Source: a phage. From it: 64,000 bases of DNA. The first letter of the stretch is position 1. Each line of letters begins with the position of its first letter. Shown one piece after another: positions 58,982-62,562 of this stretch. The stretch lies in the sequence record PZ386951.1; one strand, 5' to 3'. Under the pieces are notes generated by a model. That model ran no database searches, was not told where the DNA came from, and was given only the letters and a program-made list of their open reading frames with translations. The position numbers and the translations under genes are program-made.

Positions 58982-59344
58982 TTAAAAGAATTTAAATTTT
59001 TTCTTTGACCTTTTATTAAATGCATCTTGTAGTTGCATTGTAATACATTTTTCTACATGAGGAGCTAACTCAGCTTTTCTTTCTTGGTCAAGAACAGCAA
59101 AGTCCATTACAACCTTTCCATCAACCCAATCTAATTTTGTCACATATACAATGTGTGTAGAACCATCTTCTAGTTTAATGACAATCTCCTGGATAACATT
59201 TTCCATAGCGGATTTAATTATCTTAAGAGACTCATTAAAAAGACGTTCTTTTCTTTCTTCTTCCCCCTCCGAAGAGGGGGATTCATCGATAATTTCTAGA
59301 TCTAAATCTAAATCATCTTTATTCATTAAATTCTTCCATATCAC
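58982..59344 (-). CDS. 40: gp40 head assembly protein (120 aa)
   Basis: size and position between uvsX and 41. Confidence 0.6.
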   Translation of the reverse strand: MIWKNLMNKDDLDLDLEIIDESPSSEGEEERKERLFNESLKIIKSAMENVIQEIVIKLEDGSTHIVYVTKLDWVDGKVVMDFAVLDQERKAELAPHVEKCITMQLQDAFNKRSKKKFKFF

Positions 59345-60500
59345 TTAACTGTTCTAGGTCAGTTTCTAAATCAGCTGCTGATTTACTTTTACTTTCTGGA
59401 GATTTAAATTTTTCAACCTTTGAGTTAATTAATTCATCGACTTCAGCTTCAACAATTTCATTACTATCAATAGCACCTAACTGATAAGCACGTTTAATAG
59501 CATCTCGGAATGGCTGATGTTTAAATAAAGGACCCCAGAATGTAGTGCAGTTAGTATCTTTTGCACGCCAAGATTTTTCTTCGCGAATCATCTCGCCAGT
59601 TTCTTCGTCAAGAAATTCACGAGCATACCAACCATTTTTAGGTTTTACAACAAATCCTAATTCTAGAGCCATATCTAACAATCCAGAATAAGGATCGATG
59701 CCACCGTCAAATTTAACATCAATAAAGAATTTACTTTTTTCTTTAACGGTACGAGATTTTTCTACATTTAGAACAAATTGATACCCCTGAAGATCAGAAC
59801 CATCTTTAATCTGACGTTTACCGATAATGAATACGGTATCAGCCGAATACATTACGCCTGTACCACCTGTCATCACGGTTTTACTAAACATTTCAATTGT
59901 TTCAATTGTATGGTTAACCGCAACACATGGAATATTTTTAATGCTAAAGTAAGGAGTAACAATACGGAATAATGACTTCAGTGATTTAGCACGAGTCATA
60001 TCTGCCACAGATTTTTCATTCAAGGCATCTTCCGTTTCTTTCTTAGAAGCCATATTACCAATTGAATCGATGAATACAATAACTTTTTCACCACGCTCAA
60101 TAGCTTCAAGCTGGTTCACCATATCAATTTTCAGCTGTTCAACTGACTGAATTGGCGTATGAATTACTCGTTCCGGGTCAACTCCCATGGATCGCAAATA
60201 AGCTGGAGTAATACCAAATTCGCTATCATAGAATAGACAAACCGCGTCAGGATATTTGTTCAAATATGCCGCAACCATAGTCAAAGACATATTTGATTTA
60301 AAGTGTTTAGAAGGCCCTGCGAAAATAGTTAAACCAGACTGCATACCGCCATCAATCGCACCAGAAATAGCAATATTAAGCATTGGGATTTTTGTACGGA
60401 TTACATCCTTTTCATTAAAGAATTTAGATGTAGTCAGTTCAGCAGTCATTTTAGAAGTGGAAGCTTTAATCAAACGGGATTTTAAATCTGCAATAGACAT
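59319..60500 (-). CDS. uvsX: UvsX recombinase (RecA-like, 393 aa)
   Basis: Walker A GPSKHFKS; N-terminus MSIADLKSRLIKASTSK close to T4 UvsX. Confidence 0.95.
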   Translation of the reverse strand: MSIADLKSRLIKASTSKMTAELTTSKFFNEKDVIRTKIPMLNIAISGAIDGGMQSGLTIFAGPSKHFKSNMSLTMVAAYLNKYPDAVCLFYDSEFGITPAYLRSMGVDPERVIHTPIQSVEQLKIDMVNQLEAIERGEKVIVFIDSIGNMASKKETEDALNEKSVADMTRAKSLKSLFRIVTPYFSIKNIPCVAVNHTIETIEMFSKTVMTGGTGVMYSADTVFIIGKRQIKDGSDLQGYQFVLNVEKSRTVKEKSKFFIDVKFDGGIDPYSGLLDMALELGFVVKPKNGWYAREFLDEETGEMIREEKSWRAKDTNCTTFWGPLFKHQPFRDAIKRAYQLGAIDSNEIVEAEVDELINSKVEKFKSPESKSKSAADLETDLEQLSDMEEFNE

Positions 60501-60577
60501 TCATTTTTTCCATAGGCATCATTATATTTTCCTCACTGGTTAAAGATAGAGTAATTATAACACAATAAATTTAGGCA

Positions 60578-61426
60578 TTAATCAACTGCTATTGGATGAA
60601 TAGCATTAAACTTATGAAATGCTTCTGATTTTTCTTTACGCGAAACACACATGCGAAGAACCTTTAGTGGTTCATCTTCTTCACCCAACGATTTTCGTTT
60701 TTCAATATTTGAAGTTTTCCAACGAGCTTGCTCTGGAAACTCTCTATTGATTTGCTCGAGCGCTCTATTATGTTTAGAATTACTACGAATTGAACTGCAC
60801 CCGCCAGGAGCTTGTGCTTTTCCAGATACAACTAGATATTTGAACAAGGCCAAATGCGGATAACCTTGATTAATTAAATTGAGAAATGCATACATATCTT
60901 CACATAAATCAATTTTTCCATACCCAATTTGTTCTGTCGTAAGTTTTCCGAGGTCATACCATGTATTCGTGAATCCATATGAGTTTTCACGATAATTACC
61001 CCAAGATGAAGTAATTTTAAAAATTGGTAGACGAGCATGGCCATGATAATACCCGCAATCCATGGCATCCTCAACGTATTGAATCAATTCATAGAACTGT
61101 TCACGAGTCAATTGATTGACTTTATCTACACATCGGCGATCATCTCTTTTTCGCATTGAACTCATACGAATAGTAGTATCATCGTCAATCATCCAGATTC
61201 GTTGACCTGCATACATATCAGTAATTGCTTTACGAGTACCGGCAATTCCATTAACATCATCAGGAATAGTTACAATTTTAGCTTTAGACCCATAGGCATC
61301 ATAATAAGCTTTTTCTTCATGTTCACGCACTACAATATGCGGTTCATAATCAGTCGGAAACATATCAAGGGCAGAAACTGCCCCTACGCGTTGATAGCTT
61401 GGAATTACGAATTGAATCATTTCCAC
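60578..61426 (-). CDS. DxD-motif glycosyltransferase (282 aa) at the beta-gt locus
   Basis: IWMIDDDTTI motif; lies between uvsX and 42; not the 351-aa T4 beta-gt. Confidence 0.55.
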   Translation of the reverse strand: MEMIQFVIPSYQRVGAVSALDMFPTDYEPHIVVREHEEKAYYDAYGSKAKIVTIPDDVNGIAGTRKAITDMYAGQRIWMIDDDTTIRMSSMRKRDDRRCVDKVNQLTREQFYELIQYVEDAMDCGYYHGHARLPIFKITSSWGNYRENSYGFTNTWYDLGKLTTEQIGYGKIDLCEDMYAFLNLINQGYPHLALFKYLVVSGKAQAPGGCSSIRSNSKHNRALEQINREFPEQARWKTSNIEKRKSLGEEDEPLKVLRMCVSRKEKSEAFHKFNAIHPIAVD

Positions 61427-62157
61427 TCACCGTTATAATCTTTTTTCACAATATGAGTTTCGCCAGTATTCCACCAATGATCAACCAAGTAAAAATGACG
61501 AGAATATACATGAAGACTTCCAACATTCCATATAATAGAACCTGCTTTATACTGACGAGTTGAATCGCCTGCATTCAAATCAGATACTAATTTATCTAAT
61601 ACGTATTTTTGCCATGCATAATCATTACGGAATCCGAAGACCACGTCATTTGAGCGCATGCTTACTACTGCATTGACTTTCTTATCACGAATCAGGTACT
61701 GTACTGTATTCGTACACATGAAATCTGACATACCATCTTTATTGTAGTCAAATTGCATGGATGGACGAGTATAAATCATGATACCACGTCGAGAATCAGG
61801 ATTTTGACCAAGTTCAGCTAAACACATGTCATATTGAGCATAGTTATCTTCTGACCAGATAGCCCAACCATAATTCGAGTTAATTTCACCTTTAGAAGAT
61901 GCTACCTGCTGCCAAATCTTTGGTGTTTCACCCGGAATATCTTTAACGAACAAGCTCTTAGATTTATACCATTCAAGTTCACGCTGAATGTATTCATCAT
62001 TAAGAGCGCCAAAAATAAACGGTTCATCTGCTACAAATGATGCGCCAATAATTTCAATAGTTTTAACACCAGTTTTATCAACTACGAAATCTTTTTCTTT
62101 TAATGCAAGCCCCAAATGAAGACGGATTTCTTCAACTGTCATAGAGTCACTAATCAT
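61417..62157 (-). CDS. 42: dCMP hydroxymethylase gp42 (246 aa)
   Basis: 246 aa, N-terminus MISDSMTVEEIRLHLGLAL as T4 gp42. Confidence 0.95.
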   Translation of the reverse strand: MISDSMTVEEIRLHLGLALKEKDFVVDKTGVKTIEIIGASFVADEPFIFGALNDEYIQRELEWYKSKSLFVKDIPGETPKIWQQVASSKGEINSNYGWAIWSEDNYAQYDMCLAELGQNPDSRRGIMIYTRPSMQFDYNKDGMSDFMCTNTVQYLIRDKKVNAVVSMRSNDVVFGFRNDYAWQKYVLDKLVSDLNAGDSTRQYKAGSIIWNVGSLHVYSRHFYLVDHWWNTGETHIVKKDYNGEWK

Positions 62158-62164
62158 TTAAACC

Positions 62165-62314
62165 TCAATTGATACATTCATATTTAACTTGTAACAGTAA
62201 TAAACCCCAACCTAAAATAATAGTTGGAATCATAAGAGGAACCGTTACACTATAGTATATACTTATTATAACCATCAAGATTAAAAGCAATGCTGCTATA
62301 ATTTTGCTTTTCAT
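62165..62314 (-). CDS. small membrane protein (49 aa), below cutoff
   Basis: ATGA overlap with imm stop; strongly hydrophobic. Confidence 0.4.
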   Translation of the reverse strand: MKSKIIAALLLILMVIISIYYSVTVPLMIPTIILGWGLLLLQVKYECIN

Positions 62315-62562
62315 TCCTTCTCTCTGATGATAATTACCTGATTTGGCTGCGCAGACTTTTTAGTTTCACCTGCAATTGACCAAATAAATGTAATAAACCA
62401 ACCAATAATTGACCAGTTAAACAGTAAAGATGTGAAAAAGATTCCTACTGTCGATTTTGACCCACGCATCAAGGCGATAAACCATGGAAGCATGTATATA
62501 ATAATAGCCAACACGCCTGAAACTAAAACCATAAAAATTGAACCTGCTACTAAAGTTTCCAT
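62311..62562 (-). CDS. imm: immunity to superinfection protein Imm (83 aa)
   Basis: 83-aa two-TMD protein between 43 and 42. Confidence 0.75.
   Translation of the reverse strand: METLVAGSIFMVLVSGVLAIIIYMLPWFIALMRGSKSTVGIFFTSLLFNWSIIGWFITFIWSIAGETKKSAQPNQVIIIREKE

Follow-up and report, generated by a model that had tools for sequence, protein, structure and literature searches.

The gene between uvsX and gene 42 in the 64,000-nucleotide stretch of phage DNA that we analyzed (sequence record PZ386951.1; hereafter, the window) almost certainly encodes a T2/T6-type beta-glucosyl-HMC-alpha-glucosyltransferase, an enzyme that transfers a second glucose onto alpha-glucosyl-hmC to produce alpha-gentiobiosyl-hmC. 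The presence of this gene (TAGT) in place of beta-gt is the normal state in T4-like coliphages and an already known feature; its apparent oddity stems from taking T4 as the reference. Knowledge of the gene in T2 and T6 goes back to the classical T-even studies (reviewed in PMC6024577); the gene occupies the position of the beta-GT of T4 (PMC13390438) and was knocked out, modelled and surveyed in papers published in 2024-2026. In a survey of phage genomes, the usual arrangement was an alpha-GT or a beta-GT paired with TAGT, and the T4-type pair of alpha-GT and beta-GT was present in 6 of 753 genomes (PMC13216743). The biological role of TAGT was described in the same survey as "yet to be defined" (PMC13216743).

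Gene model and organization of the locus

The mechanical list of open reading frames (ORFs) placed the gene at 60578..61426 on the minus strand, with a GTG start and 282 aa. The ORF list, Pfam assignments and the comparison of gp42 agree with the initial annotation that the ORF is real and sits between uvsX and gene 42. Nor is the ORF a product of chance, as indicated by its full-length conservation across 477 phage records and by homologues with as little as 28% amino acid identity in metagenomic proteins. The annotated length of 282 aa describes the mechanical ORF correctly, but the product is likely to have 280 aa and to start at ATG 61420, which follows the GTG by two codons. We favor this start codon because it overlaps the TGA stop of gene 42 as ATGA and because all of the annotated homologues that we examined carry an 843-nt CDS (8 of 8 records: RB32, JK08, T2, EH2, NR1, Solly, Geo and PYps5T). 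The features of the locus are as follows:

59319..60500, minus strand: uvsX recombinase, the downstream flank (Pfam T4_UVSX_C and RecA)
60501..60577, minus strand: 77-nt spacer from the transferase stop to the uvsX start, without a segA-type homing endonuclease, unlike T4
60578..61420, minus strand: probable ba-gt / g-gt / TAGT coding sequence (PF20691), 280 aa plus stop; the mechanical ORF reaches the GTG at 61426
61169..61198, minus strand: codons of IWMIDDDTTI, residues 75-84 in the 280-aa numbering
61178..61186, minus strand: codons of DDD, residues 79-81 (GAC GAT GAT), a putative DxD motif for metal/UDP-sugar binding that follows beta-strand 4 of the GT-A fold
61417..62157, minus strand: gene 42, dCMP hydroxymethylase, 246 aa, the upstream flank (Pfam Thymidylat_synt; 97% identical to T4 gp42)

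The wider gene order in the window (41, 40, uvsX, transferase gene, 42, 42.1, imm, imm.1 and 43) puts the transferase gene in the slot that it holds in Tequatrovirus genomes. The interval between uvsX and gene 42 is plastic, and the window holds a minimal form of it, comprising only the 77-nt spacer and the ATGA overlap in addition to the transferase gene. In T4, segA and b-gt fill the interval; in PYps5T, two additional small ORFs separate the transferase gene from gene 42; and in WL-3, an intron-like endonuclease adjoins the transferase gene. Upstream, gene 42 and imm are separated by a 49-aa hydrophobic ORF (62165-62314, minus strand), which overlaps the stop codon of imm. This ORF is annotated in RB32 (as 42.1) and in Geo; the T4, T6 and T2 records have an unannotated gap of ~150 nt at this position.

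Scanning positions 60300-62400 for promoters and terminators gave counts that did not exceed those of shuffled sequences. A terminator-like hairpin was flagged within the transferase gene, at 61366-61386 (minus strand; codons 12-19). The hairpin (TAGGGGCAG-TTT-CTGCCCTTG) has a stem of 9 bp; the fPS-65 record, too, has a terminator annotated beneath its match. The spacer upstream of uvsX (60501-60577, minus strand) reads TGCCTAAATTTATTGTGTTATAAT, which, judged by eye, resembles a T4 middle promoter with a MotA box and a -10 element. This candidate was absent from the output of the sigma-70 scan.

Family assignment and relatives

BLAST comparisons with the T2 and T6 ba-gt proteins returned gap-free matches over the full length (276/280 residues for T2 and 98% identity for T6), and these identities of 98-99% bear out the T2/T6-type reading that the initial annotation had put first. 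Using the 280-aa window protein as the reference for pairwise comparison, we found 0 differences in the protein of the Yersinia phage PYps5T (100% identical), 1 in RB32, 2 in both EH2 and Solly (K46R and V50I, both conservative), 3 in NR1, 4 substitutions in T2 (98.6% identical), 5 in T6 and 7 residue differences in Geo. The assignment is further supported by a match to the Pfam family PF20691 (TET-associated glycosyltransferase) at 38.1 bits against a gathering threshold of 27.5 (E 2e-9; profile positions 2-205 of 205), and by a match to PHROG 842, annotated as beta-glucosyl-HMC-alpha-glucosyltransferase (9.8e-90).

The gene is also widespread. Of the 479 phage records in which Megablast recovered it, 477 matched over the full length, and nucleotide identity was 90-99% in 475. 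Most of the records are from Tequatroviruses of Escherichia, Shigella, Yersinia and Salmonella, and the informative annotations among them name a beta-glucosyl-HMC-alpha-glucosyltransferase. Searches with tblastn widened the set to 689 records, including copies with ~65% identity in CC31-type phages of Klebsiella and Enterobacter and a copy with 48% identity in a Serratia phage.

Fold and putative sugar-nucleotide binding motif

The GT-A type DDD motif (IWMIDDDTTI) noted in the initial annotation is present, and the model of the protein falls in the GT-A fold class. Residues D79, D80 and D81 are invariant in a 10-sequence alignment, and a strand at residues 74-77 of the predicted structure precedes the motif; the protein combines a GT-A fold with a DxD motif. 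Confidence in the model is moderate (mean pLDDT 69.7, with residues 126-150, 194-211 and the C-terminus below 50), and we relied on the model to assign the fold class but not to judge the geometry of the active site. The alignment used for structure prediction was shallow because the homologue search yielded only 11 clusters. Among deposited structures, which include those of T4 alpha-gt and beta-gt, a PDB sequence search returned only two chance matches (E 1.6-2); by sequence, therefore, the protein has no solved relative. The invariant DDD would bind a divalent metal together with the diphosphate of the UDP-sugar. The mechanism would be inverting, going from UDP-alpha-glucose to a beta product, which fits the GT2-like structural neighbors of the model.

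Partner enzymes and predicted DNA product

The adjoining gp42 is 97% identical to the T4 dCMP hydroxymethylase and, thus, hmC is expected in the DNA of this phage. In the proposed pathway, gp42 would make hydroxymethyl-dCMP and hmC would then go into DNA; an alpha-gt encoded ~12-13 kb away, outside the window, would place an alpha-glucose on hmC; and TAGT would then move a second glucose from UDP-glucose onto this alpha-glucose in beta-1,6 linkage, yielding alpha-gentiobiosyl-hmC. A tblastn search of the 64-kb window for alpha-gt gave no match, and the window stops inside gene 43. We therefore infer from its relatives that this genome has alpha-gt: the gene lies 12-13 kb beyond the transferase gene in all four that we checked (JK08, PYps5T, T2 and T6).

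For the reaction, the phenotype of the knockout and the nucleosides of phages with near-identical enzymes, we draw on published work. An alpha-glucose is attached to hmC by alpha-gt in T2 and T6, and ba-gt joins a second glucose to it through a beta-1,6 linkage. The resulting gentiobiosyl-hmC accounts for 5% of the hmC of T2 and 72% of that of T6 (PMC6024577). When ba-gt is deleted from T6, alpha-glucosyl-hmC alone remains (PMC11078745; bioRxiv 10.64898/2026.02.25.707755). HPLC/MS analyses of the Durham Collection Tequatroviruses EH2, Solly, NR1 and Geo detected hmC, alpha-glucosyl-hmC and alpha-gentiobiosyl-hmC (PMC13390438). In EH2, Solly and NR1, approximately one-third was hmC and two-thirds alpha-gentiobiosyl-hmC, alpha-glucosyl-hmC was present in traces and beta-glucosyl-hmC was absent; the ratio in Geo-type phages was ~1:2:2 (PMC13390438). 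Because the window enzyme differs from those of EH2 and Solly at two conservative positions only, a similar sugar pattern is expected by analogy for this phage, with about two-thirds gentiobiosyl-hmC, about one-third bare hmC and no beta-glucosyl-hmC. The extent of gentiobiosylation is not readable from sequence, however, given the 1:2:2 ratio of Geo-type phages and the contrast between T2 and T6, whose enzymes are 97-98% identical to each other despite gentiobiosyl shares of ~5% and ~72%.

The same contrast raises the question of whether the gene is weakly active or inactive, as in T2 (~5% gentiobiosyl), leaving mainly alpha-glucosyl-hmC in the DNA. The T2 gene is 98.6% identical to the one in the window, yet makes little gentiobiosyl-hmC (PMC6024577), and the apparent lesions of the gene in two public T6 records suggest that its loss is tolerated in the laboratory. 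We consider this outcome unlikely because the gene is intact in the window, carries the consensus residue at every invariant column, including R11 and P251, where T2 departs, and is closest to the enzymes of the high-gentiobiosyl phages EH2 and Solly (PMC13390438).

The two public T6 genome records each have a different apparent lesion in the transferase gene. In MH550421 (4138-4980 of locus L002, minus strand), codon 10 is TAG and the CDS is annotated from Met20; in AP018814 (301-1140 of locus L006, plus strand), the invariant DDD is one Asp short (two codons instead of GAC GAT GAT). These lesions may be laboratory-stock changes or sequencing artefacts. The T2 record MH751506 (3286-4128 of locus L005, minus strand) differs from the window at R11H and P251S. 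R11 is invariant and P251 near-invariant in the 10-sequence alignment, and these substitutions are candidates that might cause the low gentiobiosylation of T2 (~5%) compared with T6 and EH2-type phages. It is very unlikely, in our estimation, that the full genome lacks alpha-gt or has a variant of it, with TAGT then using another acceptor or producing a sugar pattern new to the literature, or that natural variants at positions like R11 and P251 set the level of gentiobiosylation. The latter, if true, would account for the long-known gap between T2 (5%) and T6 (72%).

Alternative transferase activities

The slot of the transferase gene is syntenic with that of T4 b-gt, as could be expected if the protein were a diverged counterpart of T4 beta-gt with the same function, placing a single beta-glucose straight onto hmC. 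In addition, some phages carry solitary TAGT homologues without an alpha- or beta-GT, and distant members of the family could act directly on the base (PMC13216743). Still, such an activity is highly improbable for the window protein. BLASTP comparisons of this protein with T4 beta-gt and with the alpha-gt of T6 and JK08 gave chance matches only (E >3), and a search of the 64-kb window with T4 beta-gt found nothing. The initial annotation was right to separate the gene from the T4 beta-glucosyltransferase, whose length it gave correctly as 351 aa and which occupies the syntenic slot together with segA: the two proteins are unrelated both in sequence and in fold (GT-A vs GT-B). Moreover, beta-glucosyl-hmC is undetectable in phages with near-identical enzymes (PMC13390438), and the T6 delta-ba-gt mutant lost the second glucose alone (PMC11078745). 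T2 and T6 also retain ~25% bare hmC, sites that ought to be filled by a beta-glucosyltransferase acting on hmC itself.

The probability of an arabinosyl-type transferase of the RB69/Mosigvirus kind, which would put arabinose instead of glucose on the DNA and which the initial annotation had offered as an option, is negligible: T4-like phages do vary in sugar chemistry and the uvsX-43 interval of RB69 carries an arabinose module (PMC6024577), but the window protein is 98-100% identical to the enzymes of phages measured with gentiobiosyl-hmC (PMC13390438) and has a GT-A fold, whereas RB69 ORF003c is a predicted GT-B (PMC6024577). Further, arabinosylation in Mosigvirus targets 5-hydroxy-dC from a distinct synthase (PMC13390438), while the gp42 in the window is a hydroxymethylase of the T4 type. 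The RB69 module found no match in the window: ORF003c, 050c, 052c and 053c have no homologue there and none resembles the window protein, and ORF048c is just 25% identical to the window gp42, which shares 97% identity with T4 gp42.

Significance for defense and comparison with known systems

The identification of the gene as a T2/T6-type transferase has value chiefly for annotation and reveals no new biology. It predicts alpha-gentiobiosyl-hmC and bare hmC in place of the mix of alpha- and beta-glucosyl-hmC of T4. The altered sensitivity to restriction and defense put forward in the initial annotation is correct and already documented for Brig1, BapA and GmrSD. Brig1 did not degrade gentiobiosyl-hmC DNA in vitro, though T6 was still sensitive in vivo (PMC11078745), and BapA was unable to free glucose from such DNA (bioRxiv 10.64898/2026.02.25.707755); GmrSD-family enzymes, on the other hand, still target it (PMC13216743; PMC13390438). 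Hence, the sugar pattern bears on defense, with Brig1 and BapA poor or inactive on gentiobiosyl-hmC and enzymes of the GmrSD/BrxU type still cutting, and it also bears on restriction enzymes, Cas nucleases and sequencing chemistries.

The closest known systems are the ba-gt (also ggt) enzymes of T2 and T6, which the window protein matches in length (280 aa), uvsX-42 locus, DDD motif, PF20691 and PHROG 842; the codon-10 amber and the DDD-to-DD deletion of the T6 records are both absent from the window gene. Synteny is identical with the TAGT loci of the Durham Collection Tequatroviruses (EH2, Solly, NR1 and Geo), and no record in the collection exceeds ~95-96% identity with the wider 25 kb of the window. 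T4 beta-gt (GT-B, 351 aa, PDB 1JG7) shares with TAGT the slot beside gene 42, the use of UDP-glucose and the beta linkage, but its acceptor is the hydroxyl of hmC, whereas that of TAGT is the 6-OH of the alpha-glucose on hmC (PMC6024577; PMC13216743). The putative arabinosyltransferase ORF003c of RB69 is likewise a sugar-modification enzyme for T-even-like phage DNA, yet it is encoded elsewhere (adjoining gene 39) and works with another base precursor and another sugar (PMC6024577; PMC13390438). Finally, cellular inverting GT-A enzymes of the GT2 family (such as BcsA, GlfT2, TarP and TarS) are structural neighbors at just 7-16% identity; unlike them, the window protein has a DNA-borne sugar as its acceptor, not a polysaccharide or lipid, and it has no membrane or polymerase domains.
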